From Candidatus Anaeroferrophillacea bacterium (lineage in GTDB: Bacteria > Desulfobacterota > Anaeroferrophillalia > Anaeroferrophillales > Anaeroferrophillaceae): a DNA stretch of 64,000 bases. The notes below the pieces were generated by a model. The model ran no database searches, had not been told where the DNA came from, and saw nothing but the letters and a program-made list of their open reading frames with translations. Position 1 is the first letter of the stretch; the number at the start of each line of letters is the position of its first letter. The DNA is taken from the NCBI GenBank assembly GCA_016933675.1, contig JAFGAM010000014.1, positions 47,727 through 111,726 on the forward strand, read 5' to 3'. Position numbers and translations under genes: made by a program. Below, in pieces: positions 2,203-55,812 of this stretch.

Positions 2203-3072
2203 CTATCCAACAATATTTTCTTCGACCAGTTCGCGCATCAGCCCGGCGATGCCGGCGTCGGTGTTGGGCACCTGCTGACTTTCACCGGCGGTGAGCACCA
2301 CGCTCTGGATCTTCTTGACCTTGGTGGGCGAACCGGAGAGACCGCAGGCCGCCGGATCGGCGCCGATGGACTCCACGTTCCATTCACGGATATGGGATAC
2401 GGCGCTGCAGACGCCGGGTTCCAGCCAGGCCTCCTCGTAGGCGCCCTCACATGCCTGCTTGCCGATGTTCTTGTAGGTCATCACCAACTTGGCGCTGGCG
2501 GTCCGCGGCTCGTTGGCGCTGCCGGTCACCGTCACCAACACCGGGTAACGGCTGCGTACCACCTCGATGCCGTCCTCCACCGTACGCTCGACGGTAATCG
2601 ATTCATCATCGGCGTGACGTACCTTCGCGACCCCGGTAAGCTGATTGATCTCCAGCTTTTCGGCGATCTGCGGCCCCACCTGGGCGGTGTCACCGTCGAT
2701 GGCCTGGCGGCCGCAGAAGATGAGATCGTAATTCCCCACGGTACGGATGGCACAGGCCAGGGCATAGGATGTTGCCAGGGTATCGGCGCCGGCGAAGCGG
2801 CGGTCGGACACCAGCATAACGTCGTCGGCACCGCGATAGAGGCACTCCTTGAGTACCGCCGTTGCCTGGGGCGGCCCCATGGAGATGCAGGTCACCGTCC
2901 CGCCGACACTCTCCTTCAAGGCGAGGGCGGCCTCCAGGGCGTTGAGATCCTCGGGATTGAAGATCGCCGGCAGCGCCGCGCGATTCACCGTCCCGTCCTC
3001 TTTCATGGCCTCGCCGGTCACGTTGTGGGTGTCCGGCACCTGTTTCACCGTGACGATCATGCGCAGTCCCAT
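2203..3072 (-). CDS. etfB: electron transfer flavoprotein beta subunit
   Basis: The ORF track gives 370 aa, but the first 81 codons read through an intergenic repeat. Start moved to ATG 3072 (MGLRMIVTVKQVPDTHNV...), 8 nt after AAGGAG. Confidence 0.9.
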   Translation of the reverse strand: MGLRMIVTVKQVPDTHNVTGEAMKEDGTVNRAALPAIFNPEDLNALEAALALKESVGGTVTCISMGPPQATAVLKECLYRGADDVMLVSDRRFAGADTLATSYALACAIRTVGNYDLIFCGRQAIDGDTAQVGPQIAEKLEINQLTGVAKVRHADDESITVERTVEDGIEVVRSRYPVLVTVTGSANEPRTASAKLVMTYKNIGKQACEGAYEEAWLEPGVCSAVSHIREWNVESIGADPAACGLSGSPTKVKKIQSVVLTAGESQQVPNTDAGIAGLMRELVEENIVG

Positions 3073-3134
3073 GATTCCGTCTCCTTGGCGCTGCCTGCGG
3101 CCGCACCGGCGGCCGGTTGTTGGTTGTCGGTTGG

Positions 3135-3295
3135 CAATTTTGATGGCTTCGCAACAACTCCATCGTCTTCGTGGCGCTGCAAGTCGAGTCGATCGACGTA
3201 CTACGGGGCGTAACGCCGCATCGAAGCGCCGCGAATCCGGAGCGGTTACGGTGCCATCCCTTTTCGGCGTATCTGGGCAGTGGTTACGGTTGGCG
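3135..3295 (+). repeat. intergenic element family, copy R1
   Basis: Head TTGATGGCTTCGCAACAAC at about 3140-3158. Block GCGCCGCGAATCCGGAGCGGTTACGGTGCCATCCC at about 3226-3260. Second GGTTACGGT at 3282-3290. Aligns block by block with the other copies listed in findings. Confidence 0.7.
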
Positions 3296-3635
3296 ATCTT
3301 GCGGCCTGCGGCCACAAACGGCGGTACCGATCGCCGTCACGCACCCCCGTTAACAACAATTTTTCATGGCGAAAGCGAGTACTTAGCAGATAACATCCGG
3401 GAATACAAGTACTTCAGACAAGCTGGCGGTACGCTCGGAAAACGCTTCCGGGCGGGTCGAGAACGGCGACCGGGCAACCCCGCCCGCAGCATCATTCAGA
3501 ACCAAAATCGCCACTTTGCTTTTCTCCCCACAGCGGGTATGATGAGCCGTAACCAGCGCCACATACGCCGAATAGGGGTGGCACAACCGTGCATCCCCGC
3601 CGGCAGAACAGCGAATCATTGAAAGGAGCTCCGGC

Positions 3636-5749: not shown

Positions 5750-5756
5750 GGTCTGC

Positions 5757-5905
5757 GATGGCTTCGCCACCGCTCCTCTTTCTTCGTTGCGCTGCAAGCT
5801 GAGTTATTCGACGTACCCCTTTTCCTCAGTCAGGAGGCGCCGCGAACCTGGAGCGGTTACGATGCGCCGCCCCCTTTCAGCGCGTGCTGGCAGAGGTTAC
5901 GGTTT
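5757..5905 (+). repeat. intergenic element family, copy R2
   Basis: GATGGCTTCGCC starts 7 nt after the hypB stop. CTTCGTTGCGCTGCAAG, GCGCCGCGAACCTGGAGCGGTTACGAT and a second GGTTACGGT (about 5895-5903) follow in the same order as R1. Confidence 0.7.
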
Positions 5906-5917
5906 CACCAATAATAG

Positions 5918-9772: not shown

Positions 9773-10888
9773 TCAGGACCGCAACCAGGCCTGATCCACG
9801 TTATATCTGCCGCTGTCATCGCGAAACACCCCGCCGCCAAGTTCCATCTCCAGCAGGCGGGCACTCAGGGTGGCATGATCCCAGTCCAGCACCTCGATCA
9901 GGTCATCGACACTGCGCGGCCCGTCGGCCAGGATCGCCGCCAGGCGGCACTGCTCCGGGGTCGGCGCCGGCCGGCCACCGGCCGGCGGCACGGAAGCCGG
10001 CGCCGATGTCGACCAGCGGGGAAAGGCGGCGAAGATATCGTCGGCACGTTCCACCAGTTGCGCCCCTTCCTTCAGGAGCCAGTGGGTGCCCTGCACCGAC
10101 GGACTGCCGGGCAGCCCCGGGACGGCGAAGACCTCGCGTCCCTGATCGAGGGCGCAACGGGCGGTGATCAGGGTGCCACTTTTCCGCGACGCCTCCACCA
10201 CCACCACCCCGTCGGCCAGACCGCTGATGAGGCGGTTGCGCCGGGGAAAGTTGCCGGGTTCGGGCCGGGTGCCGAGGGGCAGTTCGCTGAGCACGGCGCC
10301 ATCGCGGGCGATATCATCCGCCAACCGGTGATGGCGGGCAGGATAGACGACATCGAGGCCCGAACCCATTACCGCCACGGTCAGACCGTTTTCCGCCAAG
10401 CAGCCGGCGTGGGCTTCGGCATCGATGCCGAGCGCCATGCCGCTGACCACCGCGACCCCGCGGCGCGCCAGTTCCCCGGCCAGACGAAAGGCGAACCGGC
10501 GACCGTGGGCAGTGGCCCGGCGGGAGCCGACCACCGCGATCACCGGCCGGTCGTCGGTCGGCAGGCGGCCTCTACAGTAAAGTATCGGCGGCGGATCGTA
10601 GATGTTGAACAGCCTTTCAGGATAGCGCTCATCCCCGAGGGGGATGAGTTCGAACCCCAGCCGAGTCGCCGTTTCACGTTCCCGGGCCACCGCGTCCCAG
10701 GCGGAGAACCCGGCAATCTCCCGGGCCACGGGCAGGCGAATGCCGGCCTTCTGGCACAGATCCTCGGGGGCGGCGGTCAATACCGTCCGCGGATCGGCAT
10801 ATGCCCGGCACAGGCGGGCACAGCCACGGGCACCCAGACCGGGTACCAGGGTCAGGGCCAACCAGATTTCAAGTAACGTCAGCGACAT
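9773..10888 (-). CDS. dprA: DNA processing protein DprA
   Basis: The ORF track gives 437 aa, but the first 66 codons lie in repeat copy R3. Start set at ATG 10888 (MSLTLLEIWLALTLVPGLG). Rossmann-like core GMALGIDAEAH...VVYPARH. Confidence 0.85.
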   Translation of the reverse strand: MSLTLLEIWLALTLVPGLGARGCARLCRAYADPRTVLTAAPEDLCQKAGIRLPVAREIAGFSAWDAVARERETATRLGFELIPLGDERYPERLFNIYDPPPILYCRGRLPTDDRPVIAVVGSRRATAHGRRFAFRLAGELARRGVAVVSGMALGIDAEAHAGCLAENGLTVAVMGSGLDVVYPARHHRLADDIARDGAVLSELPLGTRPEPGNFPRRNRLISGLADGVVVVEASRKSGTLITARCALDQGREVFAVPGLPGSPSVQGTHWLLKEGAQLVERADDIFAAFPRWSTSAPASVPPAGGRPAPTPEQCRLAAILADGPRSVDDLIEVLDWDHATLSARLLEMELGGGVFRDDSGRYNVDQAWLRS

Positions 10889-10939
10889 GGATAACCACGA
10901 TGGTATCAAAGAGACCGGGGAACCCCGACACGAAAAACG

Positions 10940-11112
10940 CCAATCCGGTAAAACCGTTGCCACCGCCGACACGCGGCAAAACGGGATGGCACCGAAACCA
11001 ATCCAGGTCAACGGCACGCAGAACCTGAAGAATGAGGCGTACATGGAAGTACGCCGCAATGATTCGGGAGCAGCGTAACGAAGCACATGGCGTTGTTATG
11101 AAGCCATCAAAT
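10940..11112 (-). repeat. intergenic element family, copy R3 (diverged)
   Basis: Minus strand reads TTGATGGCTTCATAACAAC (11092-11110) ... CTTCGTTACGCTGC ... GGTTTCGGTGCCATCCCG ... GGCAACGGTTTTACCGG. Confidence 0.6.
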
Positions 11113-14519: not shown

Positions 14520-17500
14520 ATGCACCGCAAAATCATCATCCTGCTGGGTTGCCTGACGACCGTCCTGACCGTGGCGGCCGGCTTCCGGCCGCTCCCCGCC
14601 GGTGCCGTGAGCAAGGTTGACTACTCCCTGGTGCCGCCCTTCGTCTCCGCCGGGGTGCCGCCACTGGTAATGCTGGTCCTGGGCCGTGACCACAAACTCT
14701 ATTACGAGGCTTACAACGATGCCTCCGACCTGGACGGCGACGGCACCCTGGATGTGGGCTACAACCCCGCCATCGACTACTACGGCTATTTCGATTCCTA
14801 TAAGGAATACGTTTACGATTCCGCTGACAACCGCTTCGAACCGGTGGCCGAAACCGCCGACAAGAAGGTCAGCGCTGCGGGGCTCTGGAGCGGCGACTAC
14901 CTCAACTATCTCACCATGTCGCGTATGGACTGCCTGCGCAAGGTACTCTACGGCGGCTACCGGGAGACCGATACCGCCGGCGAGACCGTCCTGCGCCGGG
15001 CCTACATCCCCCAGGACGCCCACAGCTGGGGGAAGGAGTACGCCAGCATTGCCCGTGACGGCTACGACATCACCCAATACACCCCGCTGAGCCTGCCCGA
15101 CGCCGGCACCTACCATCTGTTTGCCTGCACCACCCTGGCGGACAACGGCGACTCCCTGCTCCGGGTGTTGCCCGACAACACCCACCGGATCTGGGAGTGG
15201 GTCGCCAAGGAGCGGCCGGTTTGCGACAGTTCCCTGGAAAGCGCCGGCGGCACCTATTCCGGCTATCCCGCCGACCATAGCGCATACGAAGACATGGTGA
15301 TGCAGTTTGCCACCGCCGCCCACCTGCAGGGCTCGGGCGTACCAGCCAACGGTCAGATCAACGGCAGCGGCAACCCCTACGGCGGCGATGACTACTACCT
15401 GAATATCTTCACCGGCGAACTGAGCATCAGCACCGGCGGAACCTACCAGTTCGCCGTCGACGGTGACGACGCGGTGGAGGTGGTCATCGACGGCACCGTG
15501 GTCGCCGGCTGGTACAACGGTCACGGCGCATGTGGCTGCACAACCTATTCCGGCAACATCTCCCTTGACGCCGGCAGCCACGACATCGAGTTCCGCCACC
15601 AGGAGAGAACCGGCAGCGATTCTTATTACCTTCGCTGGAGCGGGCCGGACAGCGGCGGCACCTGGGAACTGGTCCCGGCAGCGGCGTTCTCCAGCCTGAT
15701 CCAGACGACCTATGACGTTCAGGTTCCGTCCTCGACCATTACCGATTACAAGGTACGGGTGCTGGTGGGCGACGCATCGATGCCCGAAGCCAACTGCAAG
15801 CTGTATCCCAATGGATCATATAAGCCTATCGGCCTGTTGCAGCGCAACGGCGAGTCGGAGCGGATGTACTTCGGCCTGATCACCGGCTCCTATGCTAGGA
15901 ACACCTCCGGCGGCGTACTGCGCAAGAATATCGGCCCGATCACCGACGAGATCGACCCCGACACCGGCCAGTTCACCGCGGTCAACGGCATCATCAGCAC
16001 GATCAACAAACTCCGGGTGGTCTGCTACGATTACGGCAGCAAATCCTACAACTGCAGCTGCGGCTGGATCACCTCCCGCGCCATCAACGAAGGCGAATGC
16101 CGCATGTGGGGCAACCCCGTGGGCGAGATGATGTACGAGGGGCTGCGTTATTTCGCCGGCAAGAGCGGCGGCACATCGGCCTTCCTTTACAGCGGCATCA
16201 CCGACGACGACACCCTCGGCCTGCCGCTGGCCACCTGGAATGATCCGTATAATGCGACCACCGGCTACGACTACTGCGCCAAGCCCTTCATGCTCGTTTT
16301 AAGCGACATCAACCCGTCCTACGACTCCGACCAGCTTCCCGGCAGCTATTTCAGCTCCTTCACCGGCGACGTCTCCGGCCTCGATGTCAGCTCCGAAGCC
16401 GCGGTGATCTCCTCCAACGAGGGCATCAGCGGCACCTATTACATCGGCCAGGTGGGCGCCACCTACGACGGCTCGCCGACCCCGAAAACCATTTCCAGCC
16501 TCGCCAACATCCGCGGCCTCTGCCCCGAGGAGCCCACCAAGCAGGGCAGCTACTATGCCGCCGCAGTGGCCTATTACGGCCGCACCACCGACGTCAGCAG
16601 CGCCACCGGTGAGCAGAATCTCGTGACCTACACCGTCGGTTTGGCCTCGCCCCTGCCCCGCATCGAGATCCCGGTGGCCGGCACGACCGTCACTCTGGTA
16701 CCGTTCGGCAAAACCGTGCAAGCCGGCGGCATGAGCCGGGCCGAAGGTGATTTTCAACCCACCAATACCATCGTCGACTTCTTCGTCGAAGCCATCACCC
16801 CGACCTACGGCAAGTTCCGTATCAATTTCGAGGACGTGGAACAGGGCGCCGATCACGACATGGACGCCATCGTCGAATACGAATACGTGGTCAATGCGGA
16901 CGATACGGTCACCGTTTCGCTTAATTGCCCGTATTCCTCGGCCGGTTACGTGCTGCACATGGGCTACGTCATCTCCGGCACCACCGCCGACGGCACCTAT
17001 CTTGAGGTGCTGGATTACGACAGCACAGGTGGTGACGTCGACTACTTCCTCGACACCCCGCCAGGGCAATCCCCCGGCGGTACCTGGAACGACGGTGCCG
17101 AACTGCCGCTGACCGCCACCCGGACCTTCACCCCCGGCGCCGCCGCCGGCGCCGGCCTGCTGGAGAACCCCCTGTGGTTCGCGGCCAAATACGGCGGCTT
17201 CGAAGAAAAGGAGGATATCGCCAACAACCTGCCCGACAGCAGCGACGAGTGGGACAAGGACAGCGACGGCACCCCCGATACCTATTTTTACGTCACCAAC
17301 CCGCTCAAACTGGAGGAACAGCTCAACAAGTCCTTCGCCGATATCCTGCGGCGCACCGCTTCGGGTACCGCGGCATCGGTCATCTCCAGCTCCCGTTCAG
17401 GTGAGGGCGCCATCTACCAGGCGATCTTCTACCCCGAGTTCAAGGGACCGCTGGGCAACACCGTTCACTGGGTCGGCAACATCAACTCCCTGTTCGTCGA

Positions 17501-19901
17501 CGGCTACGGCAACATGCGCGAGGACACCAACGGCAATCGCACCCTCGACATCGACGACGACCGGGTCATCGTCTTCGACGGCACCACGGTATACAAATAC
17601 ACCGACGGCAACGCCGACGGCAAACTGGAAGCCAGCGAAGCCGTGTCACCGGTGGCGGTCACCGACATTACCGGCATCGAATTCCTCTGGACCGCCAACG
17701 ATTGGCTCGGCGACATCAGCGACGGGGCGATAAACTCCCAGCGCGGCTACGGTTCTACCGCCCAGCAGCGTTTCATCTTCACCTTCGTCGACAACGACGG
17801 CGACATGGTGGTGGATGACAGCACCATCGACGGCACCGGCGAACTGCTCGAGTTCACCCCCGGCCAGTCGGGGATTTATCAATATCTACATGTCACCCCG
17901 AACGTCTTCGACGCTGACAGCCCGGCCTTTCTTGCCGGCATCTTCGAAAACGGTATTGTTCTCGATAGCTCCGCTTTTCAATCCTACGCCGACACCCAGG
18001 CGGAACGGATCATCAAGTTCACCCGCGGCGAAGACCAGGCGGAAGACAATACCGGCAGCTACACAATTCCGGCCATGCGCAGCCGCCAGGTGGATTATGA
18101 TGACGACGGCACGGTGGAAACCTGGCGTCTCGGCGACATCGTCTACTCCACCCCAACCATCGTCGGCGCCCCGGCGGAATCCTACGACCTGCTCTACGAG
18201 GACGGCAGCTACACCGATTTCCGCCGCCGCTACCGCTTCCGCCGTCAGGTGGTCTACGCCGGCGCCAACGACGGCATGCTGCACGCCTTCAACGGCGGCT
18301 TCTTCAACCCCGCCGACAACAAGTTCTACCTCGGCTGCAGCGCCACCGGAACCTTCAACGACAGCGGGCTGCCCCTGGGCGCCGAGCTGTGGGCTTACGT
18401 CCCCTGGAACCTGCTGCCACACCTGGAATGGCTCACCGAGGCGGACTACGGTACCGACTACCACGTTCCCTGCATCGACCTGAAGCCCCGGATCTTCGAC
18501 GCCAAGATATTTTCCGCCGATGCCGACCATCCCAACGGCTGGGGTACGGTGATGGTGGTGGGAATGCGCTTCGGCGGCGGGGCGATTACCGCCGACACCG
18601 ACCGTGACAACGTCGTCGACGCCGGTGAACCGGTGATGCGTTCGGCCTATCTCATCTTCGATATCAGCAACCCCGAGGAGGAGCCCAAGCCCCTGGCGGA
18701 ACTGGCCTTCAGCGACCTCGGCTTCACCACCTGCTACCCGACGGTAATCCCGATGAAGGATCGCGATCCGGCCATAGACAACAACAAGTGGCTCCTTGTC
18801 CTGGGATCGGGTCCGGCGCCGGCGGCACCCGCCAGCCTTGGCGATGCCCTCCCCGAAGCGAAAAGCACCCAGACGGGAAAGGTCTTCCTCGTCGACCTCA
18901 CCAAGCTGGTCAACAGCAACGAGGTCTGGACCTACAACAGCAGCGGTACCCTCGTGGTCGGCGCGTCGCCCTATGCCGAACTGGACGGTAACGCCTTCAT
19001 CTCCGACCCGGTGACCATCGACTACGACCTCGACTACAAGGCCGACGTCGTCTATTTCGGCACCGTATCCGGCAGCTTCGCCACCGGTTGGGGCGGCAAG
19101 CTCCGGCGGCTGTTGATCGACAACGACGACAATCCGGCGAACTGGACGCCGGACTCGGTGCTCATCGATCTGGGCGGCACCCACAGCGGTCAGCCCATCG
19201 TCTCCGCGCCGTCCGTAACCCTGGACGTAGAGGGGCACCGCTGGCTCTTCTTCGGTACCGGGCGCTTCTTCAACCGCCTCGACGTCACCAGCGGAACCGC
19301 CACCGATCAGCAAAGCTATTACGGCATTCGGGAACCGCGAACCAACCCGACCACCTGGAGCTGGGCAACGGTCACCACCGGCGATCTGCTGGACGTGAGC
19401 GGGGTAACGGTCATGCAGGCGGCCGACGGAACGATCAGCGTAGTGGATTCCAGCGGCACGGTTTCGGCAGCAAGCTTTCGCGATCTCGTTACCGAGGTAA
19501 CGGCCGAAGACGGCTGGCGGATCGATTTCCCCACCAGCATGGAACGGAATCTGGGGCAGGCGGCATTGCTGGGCGATATCCTGACCTTCACGTCTTATGT
19601 ACCGTACAACGACCCTTGCGTCATGGAAGGTTACAGCTATCTTTATGCCCTGTACTACAAGACCGGCACCGCCTATCAGCAATCGGTCATCGGCCTCAAC
19701 GCCGTCGGCGCCGATGATGAGGTGCTGAAGAAAACCTCCCTCGGTCTCGGGCTGACCATCACCCCCAACATCCACGTCGGCAAGGAAGGCGGTTCCAAGG
19801 CCTTCGTCCAGACCAGTACCGGGGCCATCGTCGGTATCGAACAGGCCAACCCCGGCGCCACCAAGAGCGGCGGGGTCTACTGGCGGGAGGTTTTCCAGTA
19901 A
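14520..19901 (+). CDS. pilY1: PilY1-family pilus tip adhesin, 1793 aa, with embedded PA14 domain
   Basis: AAGGAG RBS and a signal peptide. PilY1 hallmarks NPLWFAAKYGGFEE...EWDKDSDGTPDTYFYVTNP and VYAGANDGMLHAFNGG. PA14-like block GDDYYLNIFTGELSISTGGTYQFAVDGDDAVEVVIDG...YYLRW at nt about 15330-15695. Several Dx[DN]xDG calcium-loop-like motifs. Confidence 0.9.
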   Translation: MHRKIIILLGCLTTVLTVAAGFRPLPAGAVSKVDYSLVPPFVSAGVPPLVMLVLGRDHKLYYEAYNDASDLDGDGTLDVGYNPAIDYYGYFDSYKEYVYDSADNRFEPVAETADKKVSAAGLWSGDYLNYLTMSRMDCLRKVLYGGYRETDTAGETVLRRAYIPQDAHSWGKEYASIARDGYDITQYTPLSLPDAGTYHLFACTTLADNGDSLLRVLPDNTHRIWEWVAKERPVCDSSLESAGGTYSGYPADHSAYEDMVMQFATAAHLQGSGVPANGQINGSGNPYGGDDYYLNIFTGELSISTGGTYQFAVDGDDAVEVVIDGTVVAGWYNGHGACGCTTYSGNISLDAGSHDIEFRHQERTGSDSYYLRWSGPDSGGTWELVPAAAFSSLIQTTYDVQVPSSTITDYKVRVLVGDASMPEANCKLYPNGSYKPIGLLQRNGESERMYFGLITGSYARNTSGGVLRKNIGPITDEIDPDTGQFTAVNGIISTINKLRVVCYDYGSKSYNCSCGWITSRAINEGECRMWGNPVGEMMYEGLRYFAGKSGGTSAFLYSGITDDDTLGLPLATWNDPYNATTGYDYCAKPFMLVLSDINPSYDSDQLPGSYFSSFTGDVSGLDVSSEAAVISSNEGISGTYYIGQVGATYDGSPTPKTISSLANIRGLCPEEPTKQGSYYAAAVAYYGRTTDVSSATGEQNLVTYTVGLASPLPRIEIPVAGTTVTLVPFGKTVQAGGMSRAEGDFQPTNTIVDFFVEAITPTYGKFRINFEDVEQGADHDMDAIVEYEYVVNADDTVTVSLNCPYSSAGYVLHMGYVISGTTADGTYLEVLDYDSTGGDVDYFLDTPPGQSPGGTWNDGAELPLTATRTFTPGAAAGAGLLENPLWFAAKYGGFEEKEDIANNLPDSSDEWDKDSDGTPDTYFYVTNPLKLEEQLNKSFADILRRTASGTAASVISSSRSGEGAIYQAIFYPEFKGPLGNTVHWVGNINSLFVDGYGNMREDTNGNRTLDIDDDRVIVFDGTTVYKYTDGNADGKLEASEAVSPVAVTDITGIEFLWTANDWLGDISDGAINSQRGYGSTAQQRFIFTFVDNDGDMVVDDSTIDGTGELLEFTPGQSGIYQYLHVTPNVFDADSPAFLAGIFENGIVLDSSAFQSYADTQAERIIKFTRGEDQAEDNTGSYTIPAMRSRQVDYDDDGTVETWRLGDIVYSTPTIVGAPAESYDLLYEDGSYTDFRRRYRFRRQVVYAGANDGMLHAFNGGFFNPADNKFYLGCSATGTFNDSGLPLGAELWAYVPWNLLPHLEWLTEADYGTDYHVPCIDLKPRIFDAKIFSADADHPNGWGTVMVVGMRFGGGAITADTDRDNVVDAGEPVMRSAYLIFDISNPEEEPKPLAELAFSDLGFTTCYPTVIPMKDRDPAIDNNKWLLVLGSGPAPAAPASLGDALPEAKSTQTGKVFLVDLTKLVNSNEVWTYNSSGTLVVGASPYAELDGNAFISDPVTIDYDLDYKADVVYFGTVSGSFATGWGGKLRRLLIDNDDNPANWTPDSVLIDLGGTHSGQPIVSAPSVTLDVEGHRWLFFGTGRFFNRLDVTSGTATDQQSYYGIREPRTNPTTWSWATVTTGDLLDVSGVTVMQAADGTISVVDSSGTVSAASFRDLVTEVTAEDGWRIDFPTSMERNLGQAALLGDILTFTSYVPYNDPCVMEGYSYLYALYYKTGTAYQQSVIGLNAVGADDEVLKKTSLGLGLTITPNIHVGKEGGSKAFVQTSTGAIVGIEQANPGATKSGGVYWREVFQ

Positions 19902-21746: not shown

Positions 21747-21942
21747 TTCAGCGCCCGCGTTTCTCCGACACCTAAAGCGGGTATTGCCGGTGAGCTTTTC
21801 CTGCGTCATCGCCTGGCTAATAGCAATCGAAAATTGCGTAATACGCCATAACGTTTAGTCGGGGGGGGGCAGATTGTCAAAAGCTTTCATCCGAATCACG
21901 ATCCTGCACGAAACCGGTTAGAAACTCTGGGGGGGCCGTAGC

Positions 21943-21991
21943 GTAGACGACGACAACGGGGCCGCAATGCGGCCCCGTTGTCGTCGTCTAC
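21943..21991. repeat. perfect inverted repeat, 23-bp arms with a 3-nt loop
   Basis: GTAGACGACGACAACGGGGCCGC AAT GCGGCCCCGTTGTCGTCGTCTAC, lying 120 bp downstream of the bamA stop. No T-tract. Confidence 0.8.
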
Positions 21992-22112
21992 GAATAGTGT
22001 TGAATCTGGTGATTATGAATTCGCTCGCCCCTGGAAGCTACGACCGCTTCTCCCGCCGCAGCTCGATCTTCACCCGCGTACCCAGGATCAGGTCACTCCC
22101 ACACCTGGCCCT

Positions 22113-24574: not shown

Positions 24575-25351
24575 CTAGCGGTTTTTCCACTCCGGACGAC
24601 GCTTTTCGAGGAACGAGGTCAATCCCTCACGGGCGTCCTCCAGCGCCATGCATTCCTTCAGGTAGCAATGCTCCACCGCCGCCAGAGCCTCGACAAAAGG
24701 CTTGCCGGCGGCCGCCCGCATGGCCCGCTTGGTGGACCGCAGGGCGGAACCGCTGAGAGCGGTGAAGGTGGCGACGAAGGCTTCGACCTCCTGATCGAAA
24801 TCGGCCGCAGAGACCACCTTGTTCACCAGACCGCAGGCCTGGGCCTCGGCGGCCCGGATGGACTCGCCGCCGAGAATCAGCTCAAAGGCCTTCTTCGGCC
24901 CGACCATCACCGGCAGGAATGCGGCGGCGATGGGCGGGAAAACCGCTAATTTGATCTCCGGCTGGCCGATCCTGAGGTTGTCGGCGGCAAGCACCATGTC
25001 GCAGAACAGCACCACCTCGCAGCCGCCGCCCAGCGCCGCGCCCTTGACCGCCGCCAGGGTGGGAATCTCCAGTTTGTCGAGTCGGCGGAAGATGCCGTGG
25101 AAGACCTCGATCATGCGCTCCACCTTGTCGGCGGTATGATCGGCGACATCGACACCGACGGAGAAGGCCTTCTCCCCCGCCGCGCGGATCACCAGCAGCT
25201 TGATTTCCGGACCCGCCACCAGCACCTCGTCGAGGGCGGCATTCATCTCTTCCATGGTGACGATGTCGAGCCAGTTGAGCGGCGGCCGGTTGATCGTCAG
25301 CCAGGCTGCACCGTCCCGGGTTTCATAGGTAACAAACTTATAATCCGCCAT
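24575..25351 (-). CDS. dch: cyclohexa-1,5-diene-1-carbonyl-CoA hydratase (enoyl-CoA hydratase family)
   Basis: Start moved to ATG 25351 (MADYKFVTYETRDGAAWLTINRPPLN), 9 nt after GGAAGGA. 258 aa. The ORF-track 5' extension lies in repeat R4. Confidence 0.75.
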   Translation of the reverse strand: MADYKFVTYETRDGAAWLTINRPPLNWLDIVTMEEMNAALDEVLVAGPEIKLLVIRAAGEKAFSVGVDVADHTADKVERMIEVFHGIFRRLDKLEIPTLAAVKGAALGGGCEVVLFCDMVLAADNLRIGQPEIKLAVFPPIAAAFLPVMVGPKKAFELILGGESIRAAEAQACGLVNKVVSAADFDQEVEAFVATFTALSGSALRSTKRAMRAAAGKPFVEALAAVEHCYLKECMALEDAREGLTSFLEKRRPEWKNR

Positions 25352-25384
25352 AATCATATCCTTCCTACGGTCATCGACAACAGC

Positions 25385-25540
25385 CTCCTGAATTGTTTTA
25401 CGATATCGCGTTACCCCTGACGGCACCGCAGCAGCTCCGGATTCGCGGGGCGCAAAACCCGAGGCGGGCGACGTCACCGGACGCTGAACGACTCGGGTGG
25501 CGACACAACGAAGAAGATGAAGTTGTTACGAGGCCATCAT
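25385..25540 (-). repeat. intergenic element family, copy R4 (intercistronic)
   Basis: Minus strand reads TGA TGATGGCCTCGTAACAAC immediately after the SDR stop, then CTTCTTCGTTGTG ... GCGCCCCGCGAATCCGGAGC ... GGTAACGCG. Confidence 0.65.
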
Positions 25541-26292
25541 CAGATGTACTGGCCGCCGTCCACCTTGATTACTTCCCCGGTAATGTGCCCGGCGGCCTCG
25601 GAAGCAAGGAAGGCCACCAGGGCAGCGACGTCCTCGGGCTTGCCGGCCTTCTTGAGCACCCCCTCGTCGATGGCGATCTGCTTGAACTCGTCGGGCATCG
25701 ACTCGCCCATCTCGGTGAGGATGAAACCCGGCGCCACCGAGTTGCAGGTCACCTGAGCCTTGCCGAGATCCTTGGCCGCGGCCTTGGTCATACCGATCAC
25801 CCCGCCCTTGGCGGCGGCGTAGTTGACCTGGCCGAATTTGCCGCGCAGGCCGTTGATGGAGGTGATGGTGATGACGCGGCCGAACCTCTTCTCCCGCATC
25901 CCCGGCGCCACCGCCCGGATGAAGTTGAAGGTACCGGTGAGATCGACGTCGATGACCCGCTGCCACTGTTCCGGGGTCATCTTCCAGATCACCCCGTCCC
26001 AGTTCATTCCGGCGCTGGTGACGAGGACGTCGACGGTACCCCAGCGTTCACCGGCGGCGGCCACCATGCGCTCGGCATCGGCGTAGGACGAGACATCCGC
26101 CTGGCAGGCCATGGCGTCGCTGCCGGCGGCCTTGATGGCCTCGACCACCGCTTCCGCCTGATCGGCACTCTTGTTGTAATTGACCGCCACCTTCGCCCCG
26201 AGGCTGCCCAACAGCCGGGCGATGGCCGCGCCGATGCCCCGGCTGCCGCCGGTGACGATGGCCACGCGATTCTTCAGATCGAACATTTCCAT
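25540..26292 (-). CDS. short-chain dehydrogenase/reductase (FabG-like; candidate 3-hydroxyacyl-CoA dehydrogenase)
   Basis: TGGSRGIGAAIA, NYAAAKGG (YxxxK) and SVAPGFI motifs. Start is ATG 26292 (MEMFDLK) or 26286. Confidence 0.85.
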   Translation of the reverse strand: MEMFDLKNRVAIVTGGSRGIGAAIARLLGSLGAKVAVNYNKSADQAEAVVEAIKAAGSDAMACQADVSSYADAERMVAAAGERWGTVDVLVTSAGMNWDGVIWKMTPEQWQRVIDVDLTGTFNFIRAVAPGMREKRFGRVITITSINGLRGKFGQVNYAAAKGGVIGMTKAAAKDLGKAQVTCNSVAPGFILTEMGESMPDEFKQIAIDEGVLKKAGKPEDVAALVAFLASEAAGHITGEVIKVDGGQYI

Positions 26293-26524: not shown

Positions 26525-26668
26525 CCATGGATGCGGTTATTGGATCCAAATTGGCACAGTAACAAATTCGGATTCGAGTCGCGCAAAAGCAGAGGCGTGC
26601 GGCGTCACCGTACGTCGAATGACTCAACGTGCAGCGCAACGAAGAAGATGGCGTTGTTACGAGCCATC
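26525..26668 (-). repeat. intergenic element family, copy R5 (intercistronic)
   Basis: Minus strand reads TGA GGATGGCTCGTAACAAC starting 1 nt after the thiolase stop, then CTTCTTCGTTGCGCTGCACGTTGAGTCATTCGACGTACGG ... CGACTCGAATCCGAA. Confidence 0.65.
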
Positions 26669-26669
26669 C

Positions 26670-27863
26670 TCACGACTCGCGCTTGATAATCACCGCCATG
26701 GTCGCTCCGCCGCCACCGCAGATGGAGGCCACGCCCATCTCCTTGTCCAACCGCTTGAGGGCGTGGTAGAGGGTGACGATGATGCGCGCGCCGCTGCAGC
26801 CGGTGGGGTGGCCGAGGGCGATGGCGCCGCCGTGGACGTTGAGCCGGTCCATGTCCAGATTGAGCATCCGCACGTTGCCGAGCACCTGGGAGGCGAAGGC
26901 CTCGTTGATCTCGAACAGGTCGATGTCGCTCACCTCCATGCCGGCACGCTTGAGCACTTTGGGAATGGCCACTCCGGGCCCCTCGCCCATGTAGGTGCCG
27001 TCCACCGCCGCCTGGGTAAAATCAACCATCGAAAAAAGCGGCTTGACACCGCGCTTGGCGGCCTCTTCGCGGGTCATGGCCACCAGCATCGCCGAGCCGT
27101 CGGTAAGCCCGCAGGCGTTGCCGGCGGTCACCTTGCCGTCCTTCTTGAAGGCGGTACGCAGCTTCGCCAGTCCTGCCATGTCGGTCTTGGGCTTGATCGA
27201 TTCATCGGCCTTGAATTCATATTCCGGCTGCTTGCTGGTGGCGGGAATGGTGATCGGCGTCACCTCCCCATCGAACCAGCCGTTCTGCTGCGCCTGGTAG
27301 GCCAGCCGGTGGGAGCGGACGGCATATTCGTCCATCTCCTCGCGGGTAACCCCGTACTTCTCGGCGACGTTCTCCGCCGTCATCCCCATACTCACCCGGG
27401 CGATGGGGTCGAAGCTGTCGCCCCAGCCGTCCTCCAGGGCACGGTCGCCCATCTTGAAGCCGCCGAAGCGGGCGCCCTTGAGCAGATAGGGAATGGTGCT
27501 CATGGACTCCATCCCGCCGGCCAGCACGATATTGTCCTGCTCCATGACGATCTGTTGGACGGCCATGGTCACCGCCTTCATCCCCGCCGGGCAGGCCTTG
27601 TTGATCGTCACCCCGGGAATATGCTGGGCGCAACCGCCCTTGAGGGCCACGGTGCGTCCGGGATTGACGTGGTTCCCCGCCTGGCGGCAGCAGCCGATGA
27701 TCGCCTCGTCGACCTCCTCCCCGGCCACCCCGGCGCGACTGAGCGCCTCGCGCACCGGGAAGGACGCCATATCGTACACCATCATATCCCTCAGGGTACC
27801 GCCGAAACTCCCCATGGGGGTCCGGACGGCGCTGACAAACACCACATCACTCATCGCTCGCAT
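26670..27863 (-). CDS. acetyl-CoA C-acyltransferase (thiolase)
   Basis: INKACPAGMKA active-site Cys, GNACGLTDG, and C-terminal HPTGCSG...CGGGG. Start is ATG 27863 (MRAMSDVVFVSAVRTP) or 27854. Confidence 0.9.
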   Translation of the reverse strand: MRAMSDVVFVSAVRTPMGSFGGTLRDMMVYDMASFPVREALSRAGVAGEEVDEAIIGCCRQAGNHVNPGRTVALKGGCAQHIPGVTINKACPAGMKAVTMAVQQIVMEQDNIVLAGGMESMSTIPYLLKGARFGGFKMGDRALEDGWGDSFDPIARVSMGMTAENVAEKYGVTREEMDEYAVRSHRLAYQAQQNGWFDGEVTPITIPATSKQPEYEFKADESIKPKTDMAGLAKLRTAFKKDGKVTAGNACGLTDGSAMLVAMTREEAAKRGVKPLFSMVDFTQAAVDGTYMGEGPGVAIPKVLKRAGMEVSDIDLFEINEAFASQVLGNVRMLNLDMDRLNVHGGAIALGHPTGCSGARIIVTLYHALKRLDKEMGVASICGGGGATMAVIIKRES

Positions 27864-30004: not shown

Positions 30005-30190
30005 TCCCGATTACGGAATAACGAAACAGATGGAAACCCCTAACAACTGCCTAAATGCGCCACAAAAAAATGGCGCCGTGACGGCTCCAGATTCGAGGCG
30101 CGCAATAATTTGAGGAGTGCGGCGTCGCCGTACGTCGAATGACTCAACTTGCAGCACAACGAATCAAGATGGGTTGTTACGAAGCCATCA
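30005..30190 (-). repeat. intergenic element family, copy R6
   Basis: Minus strand reads TTGATGGCTTCGTAACAAC 18 nt after the priA stop, then TTCGTTGTGCTGCAAGTTGAGTCATTCGACGTACGG ... GCGCCTCGAATCTGGAGCCGTCACGG. Confidence 0.7.
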
Positions 30191-30208
30191 AGTATTACGG
30201 TGCCATAT

Positions 30209-32692
30209 TCACCCCAGTGACAGCGGATCGATATCCACGGTCAACTGCACCGCGCGGGGCGTCGTCAGCGCGGCGCGGGCGCGGCGCACCACATCATGCA
30301 GCAGTGCCCGATCGACACTTTTGCACAGCAGGTTCCAGCGGAAGCGGCGGCGCACCCGGACCACCGGGTGGGGCACCGGCCCCCATATCTCGACCATGCC
30401 ACCGTCCCCGGCCTCCCGTCGCAGTTCCCCGCGGAGCTCCGTCAGCACCGCCTTCACCTGTTCCTCGTCCTCCCCCTGGGCCCGGCACAGCACCAGGTAA
30501 GCCCATGGCGGCAGCCCCAGCTCCCGGCGCTCCTTCAGCTCACGAACGGCAAAGCCGACATAATCGTGACCAACCGCATGGCCGATGCTGTAGTGTTGCG
30601 GCAGCAGGGTCTGGATGATCACCCGACCGGCGTCTCCCCCCCGGCCGGCACGTCCGGCAACCTGGGTCAGGAGCTGGAAGGTACGCTCGGCGGCGATGTA
30701 CTCGGGAATGCTCAGCCCCATGTCGGCACAGATCACCCCGACGAGATCGACGCCGGGGAAATGCAGTCCCTTGGCCAGCATCTGGGTGCCGATGAGGAGC
30801 TGGTGCTCGCCACGGGCGAAGGCGGTCACCAACCGCGCCAGGGATCCCTTGCGACGGGTGGAGTCGCGATCCAGGCGCACCGGTTCGACCCCCGGGAAAT
30901 GCTCCCGCACGGTTTCCTCCAACTGCTGCACCCCGACACCGATGGGCTCGACTTCGGCCGCGCCGCAGGCCGGACAGGCCGTCGGCAGCCGTACCGCATG
31001 GCCGCAGTAGTGACACACCAGGCGGTTCCAGCCCTTGTAGAAGGTCAGACGCACGGAACAGTGAGGGCAGGGCGGCATGTGGCCGCAGGCACGGCAGAAG
31101 AGGGTATGCGAAAACCCCCGCCGATTGAGGAAGAGCATCACCTGGCGGCCGGACGCGAGGGTCTCGGCGATGGCCCGCTCCAGCGGCGGCGTGAGTCCGT
31201 TCCAGCGCCAGAGGTTTCTCCGATGCTCCTGCAAATCGACGATATCGATGCGCGGCAGCCGCGCCGGACCCACCCGTTCCGGCAGCTGCAGCAGCCGGCA
31301 ATGGCCGCGGCGGGCGCGGTAGTAGGTGGTCACCGCCGGCGTCGCCGAGCCCATGACCACCGGGCAGCCGGCCAGTTTACCGCGCAGCAGGGCCATGTCG
31401 CGGCCGTGATAGGGAAAGGCGGTCTCCTGCTTATAGGACGGCTCGTGCTCCTCGTCGACGATGATCAAGCCGAGATTTTTCACCGGGGCAAAGACCGCCG
31501 AACGGGCGCCGAGAACCACCGTCGCCGTCCCGGCCGCCACCCGCCGCCACTGGTCGTAACGTTCGCCGGCGCCCAGGCCGCTGTGCAGCACCGCCAGGCG
31601 ATCGCCGAAGGGCCGCAGAAGCTGGTCGAGTAGCTGCACCGTGAGAGCGATCTCGGGCACCAGACAGATCACCCCGAAACCGCATTCCAGCGCCGCGGCC
31701 ATGGCCCGGAGGTAGATCTCGGTCTTGCCGCTGCCAGTCACTCCGTGAAGCAGAAAGGGAGCAAAACCGCCGCCGTCCAGCGCTCCGCAGACGGCCTCCA
31801 GCGCCTGCCGCTGGGCGTCGCTGAGCACCAGTTCGGGCCGCGGTTCGGCCGCCGCGGCGGCCGCGGCGGCGGGATCGATCACCTGCCGCAAGCTGGGAAT
31901 GTGGCCCGCGGCCAGCCAGCCGGCACCAACCCAGCGGGCGAGCAGCTCCCCCCGGCCCGGGAAGCGGTCGAGGAAATCCCGCCGGCGGAAAGATACCGCG
32001 CCGCGCAGAAACTCCGCCAGCGCCATTTTACGGGCCGCCGCCATGTGCGAGGCGGTGACGGCAGCCCGTAGCGCCGCTTCATCGGCCACCCGGTAAACCA
32101 CATCCCAGCGGGCCGCGGCGCGAGGCAACGACCGCCGGGTTTCCGCCGCCAGCCAGCCGTCGGCGACCCCCCGGCGCAACACCGGATTGAGACGGGCGGC
32201 AGTCACCTCGACGGCCGCGGCGATATTCACCGGCGGCAACACCTCACCGTCCACCGCCGCCAGCACCCCGGCGACGGCGGCGGCAATGCCGCGCTCCGGT
32301 ACCGCGGCCCCCGTCAGACGGTAGAAACGCCGGCTGGAAACCGTGAGCCCTCCCGGCAACAACTGCTGCAGCGCAACCCCCAGGGGGGTCTGGTAGTAGG
32401 CCGCCGCCCGGCGGTAGAAGTCCAGATCGGCGGCACCGAACAACGGTTCCGGATCAAGGACATCGACTACCTCCTGGAGGTTGGCGGCAGCGATCCCGGG
32501 CGGCGGCGCGGAGTTCACGGCAACGACGAAACCGCTCAGCTCGCGCCCGCCGAACGGTACCACCACCCGGCGGCCGACCGCCGGTGAGGGAACATCCACG
32601 CCGGTCGGCCAGGCATAGGTAAACACCCCGTCCCCCCGCGGAACGTTGAGGGCGATATCCACCCCGGCTGCCGGCGCACTGGTTTCTTGCAT
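30209..32692 (-). CDS. priA: primosomal protein N' (PriA helicase)
   Basis: 827 aa with GVTGSGKTEIY Walker A, IIVDEEHE, and Cys4 zinc motifs CRACGH...CPHC / CHYCGH...CPACG. Confidence 0.95.
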   Translation of the reverse strand: MQETSAPAAGVDIALNVPRGDGVFTYAWPTGVDVPSPAVGRRVVVPFGGRELSGFVVAVNSAPPPGIAAANLQEVVDVLDPEPLFGAADLDFYRRAAAYYQTPLGVALQQLLPGGLTVSSRRFYRLTGAAVPERGIAAAVAGVLAAVDGEVLPPVNIAAAVEVTAARLNPVLRRGVADGWLAAETRRSLPRAAARWDVVYRVADEAALRAAVTASHMAAARKMALAEFLRGAVSFRRRDFLDRFPGRGELLARWVGAGWLAAGHIPSLRQVIDPAAAAAAAAEPRPELVLSDAQRQALEAVCGALDGGGFAPFLLHGVTGSGKTEIYLRAMAAALECGFGVICLVPEIALTVQLLDQLLRPFGDRLAVLHSGLGAGERYDQWRRVAAGTATVVLGARSAVFAPVKNLGLIIVDEEHEPSYKQETAFPYHGRDMALLRGKLAGCPVVMGSATPAVTTYYRARRGHCRLLQLPERVGPARLPRIDIVDLQEHRRNLWRWNGLTPPLERAIAETLASGRQVMLFLNRRGFSHTLFCRACGHMPPCPHCSVRLTFYKGWNRLVCHYCGHAVRLPTACPACGAAEVEPIGVGVQQLEETVREHFPGVEPVRLDRDSTRRKGSLARLVTAFARGEHQLLIGTQMLAKGLHFPGVDLVGVICADMGLSIPEYIAAERTFQLLTQVAGRAGRGGDAGRVIIQTLLPQHYSIGHAVGHDYVGFAVRELKERRELGLPPWAYLVLCRAQGEDEEQVKAVLTELRGELRREAGDGGMVEIWGPVPHPVVRVRRRFRWNLLCKSVDRALLHDVVRRARAALTTPRAVQLTVDIDPLSLG

Positions 32693-32704: not shown

Positions 32705-32895
32705 TCGGTTATGAAGCCATCAATGGATGACGGCTTCGCAACAGCTCCGTCTTTTTCGTTGCGCTTCAGCCTCAATCACCGCGGCGTACGTCCATGTCCG
32801 CCGCCTTTCCTCAGCACGGAAGCGCCGCGAATCCGACGCCGTTACGGTCCGTCCATTTTCGTCGCTTTTTGGCAATAGTTACGGTTCGATCAAAT
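32705..32895 (+). repeat. intergenic element family, copy R7
   Basis: GATGACGGCTTCGCAACAGC (32726-32745), TTTTTCGTTGCGCTTCAG, GAAGCGCCGCGAATCCGACGCCGTTACGGT, and a second GTTACGGT at about 32879-32886. Confidence 0.7.
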
Positions 32896-32965
32896 TTGAC
32901 AAATCCCGACCGGAACGTTATCGTATCAGAATCGCTCCACCATAATAAAGGAGAAAACGGATTGT

Positions 32966-33808: not shown

Positions 33809-35053
33809 ATGGCCCCACACCGTACGGTCAAACAACTCTTTCACGCCTTCACCGACCGGTGCGCAACGGTGCCACTGGCGGTCGAGTACTGGGATGGTGA
33901 CCGGCGCCAGTACGGCCCCCCATCAGCCGGCCGGGGACCCTGCTGCACCCTGCGGCTGAAAACCCCCGATGCCGCCAAGGCGGCGCTCACCGGTGGCTCG
34001 CTGGGGTTCGGCGAGGCCTATGCCGCCGGCGAGATCGACATCGGCGGCAGCCTCCAGGAACTCATCCGTGTCTGCATGAACCCCGCGTGGGAGCGGCGGC
34101 GCGGCGCCCTGCACCAGCGTTTCCAGCATCTGTGGGAACGCTTTCACCGCCGCTGGAACACTCCTTCCGGCGCGCGCCGGGCGATTGCCCACCATTACGA
34201 CCGCGGCAACGAATTCTACCGCCACTGGCTCGATGACAGCATGACCTATTCCTGCGCCTACTTCCGGAATCCGGAGATGTCGCTGGAAATGGCTCAGCAG
34301 GCGAAGTACGAGCATCTGTGCCGCAAGCTGCGGCTCACCTCCGGCGACCGGCTGGTGGACATCGGCTGCGGCTGGGGCGGGATGCTGATTTACGCCGCCC
34401 GCCGCCACGGCATCACCGGCGTCGGCTACACTCTCGCCCGCAATCAATACGATTACGCCCGCGAACAGGCGCGGAATACCGGGGTTGACGACCGGGTAAG
34501 TTTCGTCCTCGAGGACTACCGCAGCGCCCGGGGATCCTTCGACAAGTTCATCTCCATCGGCATGTTCGAGCATGTCGGCAAACGCTACCACCCGGTCTTT
34601 TTCGACACCGTCCGCAAGTTGCTGAAACCCGGCGGTATCGGCGTGCTGCACACCATCGGCAAGGACCACGAGGCCCCCACTGACCCGTGGATCACCACCT
34701 ACATCTTCCCCGGCGGCGACCTGCCCAGTCTCGCCGGCATGTGTGGTGAGATGGGCCTGCGGGCGCTCAAGGTCATCGACGTGGAAAATCTCCGGCACCA
34801 CTACCATCTCACCCTGCAACACTGGATCCGTCGCTTCGAGGCCCACCTCGACGACATCCGTACCACCCTGGCCGACAGCGGCCTCACCGCCGCGGCCCGG
34901 GAAACCTTCCTGCGCCGCTGGCGTCTCTACCTCAACGGCAGCGCGGCAAATTTCCTCCACGGCGATCTCAACCTTTACCAGTTGACTTTTACCCGGGGAT
35001 TGGTTAATGACCTGCCCTTGACGCGGGAACATCTGTACGCCGGTCACAACTGA
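33809..35053 (+). CDS. cfa: cyclopropane-fatty-acyl-phospholipid synthase family methyltransferase
   Basis: HYDRGNEFYRHWLDDSMTYSCAYF and SAM motif LVDIGCGWGG. Confidence 0.85.
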   Translation: MAPHRTVKQLFHAFTDRCATVPLAVEYWDGDRRQYGPPSAGRGPCCTLRLKTPDAAKAALTGGSLGFGEAYAAGEIDIGGSLQELIRVCMNPAWERRRGALHQRFQHLWERFHRRWNTPSGARRAIAHHYDRGNEFYRHWLDDSMTYSCAYFRNPEMSLEMAQQAKYEHLCRKLRLTSGDRLVDIGCGWGGMLIYAARRHGITGVGYTLARNQYDYAREQARNTGVDDRVSFVLEDYRSARGSFDKFISIGMFEHVGKRYHPVFFDTVRKLLKPGGIGVLHTIGKDHEAPTDPWITTYIFPGGDLPSLAGMCGEMGLRALKVIDVENLRHHYHLTLQHWIRRFEAHLDDIRTTLADSGLTAAARETFLRRWRLYLNGSAANFLHGDLNLYQLTFTRGLVNDLPLTREHLYAGHN

Positions 35054-35290
35054 TTGAGCCGTAACCACGGCCGGACGGTGCCGAAAACCCGACAGCACCG
35101 CAACCGCGCCGGATTCACCCCATGCAAGAGCCGAGGAGTGAGGCGTCCCCCGGGGGGGGGGTTCGGTCGTCTCTGCCTGATTGACAATCACTTTTCAGCA
35201 GGAGTGAGGCGTACCTGGGGGTACGCCGCCGGCCTCTACGATCTCGAGTCTACCGGAGTGAGACGTACCTGGGGGGGTACGTCTTCGTGG
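35054..35290 (-). repeat. intergenic element family, variant copy R8 with a triplicated hairpin module
   Basis: The tail block, read on the minus strand, is GAATCCGGCGCGGTTGCGGTGC...GGCCGTGGTTACGGCTC (35056-35120). There are three GGAGTGAGRCGT(ACC TGGG GGT)ACGYC units at 35135, 35201 and 35255. Confidence 0.6.
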
Positions 35291-39542: not shown

Positions 39543-39759
39543 GCTGTTCAGGGAGACAGAAGATAGAATTCAGGAGTCAGAATGTGATACGATGGAGGAT
39601 TACGAGGGTGACCGCTCCGATCTCCTGGCGACTGGATGCTTCCGGCAATGCGGAAGGTGGTTACGATTCCCGGACAACTATCATGATATTCTTGTAGTCG
39701 TTACACTCTTTTCAATCCCCACCCGGGGGGGGGCGTTATCCCCCCGGGTGGATTCTCGC

Positions 39760-46105: not shown

Positions 46106-46145
46106 CAACGTATATATACGGTACAACCTGGGATAAGCATACGTA

Positions 46146-46290
46146 GTCTGGTACAAGGGAATCCCGTGGAAATCGGGAGCGGACCCGCCGCTGTGATCGG
46201 GGACGAAAGCCGCATGCAGGCCACTGAATGGAGCCATTCGGGAAGGCGCGGCCGGTAGGACGATCCGTCAGCCAGAAGACCTGACCAGAC
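46146..46290 (+). promoter_or_regulatory. cobalamin (B12) riboswitch aptamer
   Basis: P1 GTCTGGT (46146-46152) pairs with ACCAGAC (46284-46290). AAGGGAA at 46155-46161, GTGGAAATCGGG, CCCGCCGCTGT at 46184-46194, GCCACTG at 46220-46226, GGGAAGGC at 46240-46247, and B12 box AGCCAGAAGACCTG at 46270-46283. Confidence 0.85.
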
Positions 46291-46365
46291 ACAGAAACCT
46301 CTTCTCTCTTCGCGGTTTTCAGGGGAGTGGGGGGCAGCAATGATTTCCTGAAAGGAGATAGGTGA

Positions 46366-50317: not shown

Positions 50318-50393
50318 TGGTGGAGCTGAGGGGGATCGAACCCCTGACCTCATGACTGCCAGTCATGCGCTCTCCCAGCTGAGCTACAGCCCC
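50318..50393 (-). tRNA. tRNA-Ala (anticodon GGC)
   Basis: The reverse complement GGGGCTGTAGCTCAGCTGGGAGAGCGCATGACTGGCAGTCATGAGGTCAGGGGTTCGATCCCCCTCAGCTCCACCA folds as a cloverleaf. G3:U70 identity pair, anticodon loop CTGGCAG, and an encoded CCA end. Confidence 0.95.
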
Positions 50394-55574: not shown

Positions 55575-55812
55575 GCCGCAGATGGCACCGCTGCTCGTTA
55601 TTCACCGACACATAGACGAGATGGAGCCGTAACCGTTGCCGAACGGCCGGTAAAACCCAATGCTGCCCGGGACGATTGTAGCCGTGTAACTTACCGTTCA
55701 GCAGGGAGAGGGCGATGCGGTCCAGCTCGCATGTCGGCGAAACATTTCCCGGGTCGCATCTATGTGCCGGCGTCCGGCACGCCAGGGGGTGTCTGGTTAC
55801 GAAGCCATCAAA
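55575..55812 (-). repeat. intergenic element family, copy R9 (between dnaK and dnaJ)
   Basis: Minus strand reads TTGATGGCTTCGTAACCAG (55795-55812) ... GGCAACGGTTACGGCTCCATC ... GCGGTGCCATCTG. Confidence 0.6.

Follow-up and report, generated by a model that had tools for sequence, protein, structure and literature searches.

What are the short non-coding sequences that recur between the genes of this 64-kb window (the whole stretch of DNA analysed, with a G+C content of 62%), and how did they come to be scattered there? The initial annotation had described them as a dispersed non-coding family with shared blocks in a constant order, and this description was borne out, as the copies differ by indels of any length and have no common reading frame. 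When the window was searched with three of the block patterns, allowing at most three mismatches, each pattern matched three to six times as compared with 0.02–0.47 matches expected, and none of 100 shuffled sequences reached the count.

Copies in the window and their anatomy

An nhmmer profile recovered seven copies in the window at E-values of 1e-40 to 1e-51, which is to be expected since these copies were the profile's own seeds, and gave an extra partial match at 35038–35147. As an independent check, every position of the window was searched, with the filters off, using a covariance model built mostly from the copies of other genomes. The results showed that the whole window contains exactly seven copies detectable by the model, with scores of 57–97 bits and E-values of 1e-12 to 1e-23, spanning 3139–3264 (+), 5754–5877 (+), 10979–11111 (−), 25413–25541 (−), 26544–26671 (−), 30063–30192 (−), and 32726–32859 (+).

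A full unit is approximately 160–175 bp long. Its left arm, L (GAYGGNTTCGTAA...), is followed by a self-pairing core and then by two further arms, the internal R1 and the terminal R2, with approximately 10–25 nt of linker between them. Block 4 (GTTACGGTGCCATC) and the second GGTTACGG arm are both reverse complements of block 1 (GATGGCTTCGTAAC), block 2 pairs with block 3, and CTCC is complementary to GGAG. Each copy is thus bounded by terminal inverted repeats, block 1 being complementary in inverted orientation to blocks 4 and 5, and forms a rod of approximately 60 pairs; the earlier statement that there are no terminal inverted repeats was wrong. L is complementary to both R2 and the internal R1 over 14–20 nt, and pairs with either of them in predicted folds. 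The folding energy was −50 to −65 kcal/mol, with a z-score of −7.0 for one strand and −5.0 for the other. In the window, five units extend from the G of GAYGG through the whole of R2, and the two others stop at R1. The copies and related sequences in the window were as follows:

3142–3298 (+): full copy, with the L arm at 3142, a rod-forming core, R1 at 3245–3259 and R2 at 3283–3298, in the divergent etfB/Fer4 gap
5757–5909 (+): full copy, the most decayed (57 bits), beginning 8 nt past the end (5749) of a cobW-like ORF; convergent genes
10947–11108 (−): full copy with the top score (97 bits), in which the apical hairpin GGCGTAC/GTACGCC is kept; upstream of dprA
25413–25538 (−): copy from L to R1, without R2, the start of which is the TGA stop of the SDR gene; within the thiolase–SDR–hydratase operon
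26548–26668 (−): copy from L to R1, without R2, starting 1 nt past the TGA stop of the thiolase gene
30029–30189 (−): full copy between an 827-aa ORF (30209–32692) and a Mur-ligase gene, co-directional with both
32729–32891 (+): full copy in which the apical hairpin is intact, between divergent genes
32708–32723 (−): isolated L-arm fragment that reads TTGATGGCTTCATAAC on the minus strand and faces the copy at 32729 head to head
35052–35290 (−): variant with three tandem apical 'hairpin + TCACTCC' modules, followed by the 3′ half, R1 and R2; without an L arm
55620–55809 (−): variant in which family L and R2 arms enclose an unrelated interior of approximately 150 nt
39596–39675 (+): possible remnant, uncertain; two arm-like strings, GGATTACGAGGG and GGTTACGATTCC

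Seven of the nine copies listed in the initial annotation were thus found by the covariance model, whereas the remaining two, at 35052–35290 and 55620–55809, are variants; the R2 end of the former overlaps the stop codon of a plus-strand gene ending at 35053. The possible fragments reported at 39590–39680 and 60300–60420 contain nothing but arm-like strings, and the covariance model detected neither of them.

The family also disturbs the calling of genes in the window. ORFs 2203–3315, 9773–11086, and 24575–25477 (ETF beta subunit, DprA, and enoyl-CoA hydratase) cross elements; there are shorter starts at 3072, 10900, and 25360, and the Pfam domains do not begin until well downstream of these, in agreement with the earlier proposal that the N-terminal extensions are artefacts. 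The pseudo-peptide VTAPDSRR was likewise present in both of the ORFs that had been named as carrying it.

Hosts and conservation of the fold

When the exact left arm was used as a query, copies turned up in a few Desulfobacterota MAGs and one metagenome, and a scan of public genomes with the 18-base core motif GTACGCCTCATTCCTCAG yielded at least 120 loci, the architecture being identical in all of them. Hosts among the listed matches were Desulfobacterales, Syntrophales, Smithella, Desulfobulbaceae, Desulfocapsa, a Geobacter MAG (L212), Nitrospirota, and Rokubacteria, and the isolates Desulfosarcina variabilis and D. cetonica were among the hosts of the core motif. The covariance model found 110 copies at E < 1e-12 in 100 sources, with further copies in the remaining loci, and confirmed the presence of the element across Desulfobacterota, Nitrospirota, and Rokubacteria. 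Pattern matches in Gammaproteobacteria, Verrucomicrobiota, Bacillota, and others, none of which the model confirmed, were regarded as chance matches. None of six pattern matches in viral contigs was confirmed by the model, and a blastn search of a plasmid collection with a strong copy gave no match. The thiolase of the window is 85% identical to thiolases of uncultured Thermodesulfobacteriota MAGs.

The occurrence of near-identical copies in different MAGs and of the element in several phyla of sediment and groundwater anaerobes points to horizontal spread. Many of the MAG and metagenome contigs end inside a copy (e.g. L002, L003, L065, L093, L097, L175, L189, and L200), which fits with a high-copy repeat breaking short-read assemblies. 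For annotation, the element is thus a sequence that lengthens ORF calls, gives rise to spurious ORFs in which the same pseudo-peptide recurs, and fragments MAG assemblies. With a model of it, gene starts in Desulfobacterota and Nitrospirota would be corrected and the ends of contigs accounted for.

The fold is conserved between the genomes. In the alignment of the 110 copies, which was fitted to the covariance model and therefore favours the structure, 84% of the cells were paired (standard pairs), as compared with 35–46% when the 3′ partners were slid by 1–3 columns. In the same alignment, 36 of 44 pairs had changed on both sides (495 cells), and none of 500 shuffles reached any of five pairing measures. 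A plain MAFFT alignment of 32 sequences with a hand-set structure gave the same picture. RNAalifold recovered only 12 pairs from a plain MAFFT alignment, and a hand-set structure and a model-based alignment were needed. Covariation between subfamilies involves the entire outer helix, which is GACGGCTTCGTAAAAAG/CTTTTTACGAAGCCGTC in one and CAGGCTGTTGAAAAAC/GTTTTTGAACAGCCTG in another, and the second helix behaves likewise (CCAACTTC/GAATTTGG and CCGATATC/GATCTCGG).

The test for covarying pairs that had been proposed in the initial annotation thus gave a positive result across genomes, but nothing significant among the seven window copies alone, where 72% of the cells were paired as compared with 70.9% after shuffling, and 109 of 500 shuffles equalled the observed value. 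The pairwise identity of the seven copies was 64%, as compared with 95% in a young subfamily. With this low identity and without covariation among themselves, the window copies resemble neutrally decaying relics; the covariation reflects the evolution of the active source copies.

The two strands do not fold equally well. The reverse complement of the orientation chosen in the initial annotation folded better in 91 of 96 copies, by a mean of 7 kcal/mol, with RNA as well as DNA parameters, and the same strand folded better in all six window copies tested. On the originally chosen strand, A·C mismatches and G·U pairs numbered 250 vs 118, a part of this A·C excess coming from the apical helix, whose 3′ half is fixed by the search motif. 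As read from the sequence, a conserved internal loop (5′-GAGGAAUGA and 5′-GCARUGACGA) can close on the better-folding strand, forming two tandem G·A pairs with Watson–Crick pairs between them.

Inspection of the sequences for small-ORF, SECIS-like, and anti-Shine–Dalgarno signals revealed nothing conserved in frame, and these readings were dropped on account of the variable length of the loop and of ORFs ending at the element. A scan for promoter and terminator consensus sequences placed none inside the elements. A T-run after R1 was present in the window-type subfamily only, and the linker of young copies contains a TATAAT, without a usable −35 sequence. A good sigma-70-like promoter match (TTGACA, 17 nt, TATCGT) was seen at 32896–32924 (+), 5 nt past R2 of the copy at 32729–32891 and upstream of the gene at 32966.

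Mobility of the elements

A direct repeat of at least 5 bp, in most cases of exactly 6 bp, flanks 25 of the 51 full copies with a recognizable R2, as compared with 1.5% of shuffled flank pairings. The repeats immediately adjoin the left-hand GAYGG and the right-hand CRTC, and are specific to the individual copy (AATATT, AATGTT, ATCCTT, AACCTT, TTAATT, ATGATT, and others); the 6-bp targets are AT-rich and correspond roughly to A-W-N-N-T-T. There is a second end class, in which the arms begin with CAGGCTG and the flanks are CTAG, CTAA, TTAG, or TTAA, i.e. a 4-bp YTAR sequence. This class displayed five exact 4-bp flank matches and several with one mismatch, in addition to TTAA in L217.

No target duplication could be recognized at any of the seven window copies, and the earlier statement that duplications are absent is therefore correct for the window, but not for the family, as young copies elsewhere have 6-bp or 4-bp duplications. 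From their mutual divergence, the lost target duplications, and the lack of R2 in two of them, we read the window copies as old, decayed relics that are probably immobile. What remains of them would be a long hairpin transcribed together with adjacent genes.

Comparison of orthologous sites revealed both filled and empty states. At the thiolase/SDR junction, both the window and L101 have an element past the stop codon, and the site is empty in L099, L100, L102, and L103, which have short element-free spacers at this position. In a close relative (L105), the thiolase/SDR junction is a run of N at approximately 10997–11095. At the SDR/hydratase junction, L105 has an element as the window does, although one that by its sequence is a member of another subfamily. 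One complete copy lies inside another in L098 and L006.

The arms and the core are combined in more than one way. In L188 (3151–3330), the family L, R1, and R2 arms surround a wholly different interior with C/G-rich hairpins of its own, in the same arrangement as at 55620–55809 of the window, suggesting that the arms are a reusable mobilization module. The same core is found between the two arm classes with their different duplication lengths. The two classes may be diverged relatives rather than unrelated sequences, since GGCT and an A-run are common to both. The arms occur in inverted as well as direct orientation. Conservation is higher in the core than in the ends, contrary to the usual MITE pattern, although the comparison is biased because the loci were mostly selected by the core motif. 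A second, small type of GC-rich hairpin (e.g. CCCCGGC TTTC GCCGGGG and CCCGGATCAGGTCCGGG) is inserted within copies in L217 (4205–4345), L126, and L235, and looks like a separate family of short palindromic repeats nesting in the element.

On the strength of the target duplications, the second end class with its YTAR flanks, the filled and empty sites, and the nested copy, we consider it likely that the elements are copies of a transposable element of the miniature inverted-repeat type (MITE), i.e. of a non-autonomous DNA transposon. Further features that the family has in common with MITEs are a length below approximately 300 bp, the lack of coding capacity, terminal inverted repeats, and dispersed copies. 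The arms would be bound by a transposase encoded elsewhere, and the unit would be inserted at a staggered cut with duplication of a 6-bp AT-rich target, whereas the sister class with CAGGCTG ends would duplicate 4 bp of the YTAR type.

No autonomous parent element, and no transposase with matching ends, was found in the approximately 2 Mb of loci compared. Three kinds of candidates were considered and rejected: pairs of arms 0.6–3.5 kb apart, which either enclosed ordinary genes or represented two separate copies; ORF families recurring across the loci, which turned out to be housekeeping genes; and a partial match in L046, which adjoins toxin–antitoxin-like ORFs with no transposase evident.

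We could not find a published description of this MITE family or superfamily, which is widespread in anaerobic Desulfobacterota and Nitrospirota; the literature was searched for the core sequence and for MITE or REP elements in sulfate reducers. Rfam 15 gave no match on the elements at the gathering score in the window, and none at E-values up to 1 in four loci with strong copies. The initial annotation, which could not place the copies in any named family, was right in this respect. It had also named membership of a described IS, MITE, or REP family as an outcome that would speak against its proposal; on our reading the elements do fall into the MITE class, but no match to a described MITE family was found. 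As a class, the element is ordinary. Its three-arm layout, the core shared by exchangeable ends, the strand-biased fold, and the enrichment at stop codons are the features worth attention, and with the exchangeable ends and interiors one could ask which properties other than transposase sites make a miniature transposon succeed.

The ERIC elements of enterobacteria and the Correia elements of Neisseria are scattered between genes, often within operons, are co-transcribed and can form long RNA hairpins, and have a TA target duplication. The element studied here is likewise small, non-coding, imperfectly palindromic, and intergenic, with terminal inverted repeats. It differs from them in duplicating 6 bp or 4-bp YTAR instead of TA, in having a third, internal copy of the arm and a core shared by two end types, and in being hosted by several phyla of anaerobes. 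We know of no sequence similarity between it and the ERIC or Correia consensus. ERIC (also IRU or MITEEc1) and Correia (NEMIS) elements are listed as MITEs in PMC3184786.

In a related lineage, Geobacter uraniireducens Rf4, the MITE Chunjie (Chen et al. 2008) has been described in PMC10969869 and PMC3184786 as a sequence of approximately 0.2 kb with a stable fold, located inside an operon without breaking it. The latter gives 21-bp inverted repeats, 9-bp direct repeats, a length of 178–235 bp, and folding energies of −98 to −130 kcal/mol. The element described here also occurs in a Geobacter MAG (L212), but its duplications of 6 or 4 bp, its length of 160–175 bp, and its energy of −50 to −65 kcal/mol set it apart from Chunjie, as far as these published features go.

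Transposons of the IS5 type, which have DDE transposases, are known for a 4-bp YTAR target duplication, and the copies with CAGGCTG ends resemble them in being flanked by CTAG, CTAA, TTAG, or TTAA. Unlike this type, the window's own end class goes with 6-bp AT-rich duplications, and no transposase gene was found in the loci. For the 6-bp class, IS1634 and ISDol1, for which duplications of 5–7 bp are listed, are a lead only; in the literature, we found ISDol1 only in lists.

Placement at stop codons and alternative readings

In 52 of 84 copies, the L end is entered by an ORF of 100 codons or more whose stop lies between −40 and +30 nt of that end; the stop codon overlaps the T/GA boundary in 30 of these 52. 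The same arrangement was found at the R end in only 24 of 84 copies, and the discordant cases numbered 38 vs 10. Both ends read T/GA...CGTAA and thus contain TGA and TAA in two frames, so that an incoming frame is stopped at once in two of three frames. Copies at or on stop codons inside operons are therefore tolerated without the genes being destroyed. Since both ends stop translation, the ability to stop it cannot explain the asymmetry between L and R.

In copies with intact duplications, there was no L/R bias (5 vs 7), while the bias was concentrated in copies without R2 (17 vs 3). We infer that it arises from preferential retention or decay of one orientation, and not from targeted insertion. 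Between co-directional gene pairs, the orientation of the element was mildly skewed (26 vs 14). A stable hairpin exactly at the stop codons in operons, such as the thiolase–dehydrogenase–hydratase operon of the window, could alter the relative expression of the neighbouring genes.

A purely selfish element of double-stranded DNA predicts neither the strand-biased fold nor the stop bias at the L end. The possibility exists that the conserved core is a functional folded module, acting in the form of RNA or single-stranded DNA of the opposite strand to that originally chosen, and that it is the cargo of at least two transposition systems, one making 6-bp and the other 4-bp duplications. On that strand, the large internal loop closes into the tandem G·A pairs described above, and A·C mismatches become G·U pairs. 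We regard this as rather unlikely on present evidence. If true, the core would persist either by promoting its own spread or through hosts having adopted the copies at stop codons as control elements at 3′ ends or between cistrons.

It is still less likely that the family is mainly a functional structured RNA of 3′-UTRs or intercistronic regions, which would act on mRNA stability, processing, or termination, and be kept by selection at each site rather than transposed. The strong covariation across genomes, the excess of L ends over R ends at the stop of a co-directional gene, its prominence among copies without R2, and the conservation of the internal-loop sequence across phyla all speak for such an RNA. 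Mobility, however, is evident from the target duplications, the filled and empty sites, and the nested copy, and the young copies with intact duplications are unbiased in orientation. In addition, the window copies do not co-vary among themselves, the strand transcribed together with the upstream gene is usually the one that folds less well, no Rfam family matched, and most subfamilies are devoid of a terminator-like tail.

The MITE reading also has to be weighed against the REP/BIME or REPIN type of palindrome, which a RAYT transposase (tyrosine, HUH-type) spreads in the form of single-stranded DNA. These sequences are 20–40 nt long, have a conserved head and no target duplication, depend on RAYT, and can stabilize upstream mRNA. 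The element resembles them as an abundant, multi-copy extragenic palindrome with a fold that is stronger on one strand, with both RNA and DNA parameters, and with arms that alternate in orientation, being both inverted and direct. It is, however, four to five times longer (160–175 bp), lacks the conserved GTAG-type head, and makes 6-bp and 4-bp target duplications; to our knowledge, HUH transposases (IS200/IS605 and RAYTs) make no such duplications. No RAYT-like gene was noticed incidentally, and we find this origin very improbable. A folded single-strand recombination site of the integron attC kind is the least credible alternative, since the imperfect palindrome, the conservation of structure over sequence, the strand-specific fold, and the GTTAC/GTAAC boxes that recall such a site are accompanied by housekeeping neighbours instead of cassette arrays, by both orientations, by target duplications, and by a GTTACGG that misfits the GTTRRRY consensus.

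Some further features of the window were observed. A near-perfect long palindrome lies between genes at 21937–21997 (GTAGACGACGACAACGGGGCCGC AATG GCGGCCCCGTTGTCGTCGTCTAC); it gave a weak covariance-model match on both strands, is not a member of the family, and may be a bidirectional terminator. Hairpins on C/G homopolymer runs are located at 39718–39752 and 35150–35290 (CCCACCCGGGGGGGGG...CCCCCCGGGTGG; CCCCCCCCCCGGGGG). A tRNA gene was identified at 50321–50393 (−) with the Rfam tRNA model (66.5 bits), and an ORF of 1793 aa at 14520–19901 (+) displays a strong third-position G+C bias. A cobalamin riboswitch aptamer (98.5 bits) is present at 46132–46303 (+), just upstream of the ORF at 46366–47712.
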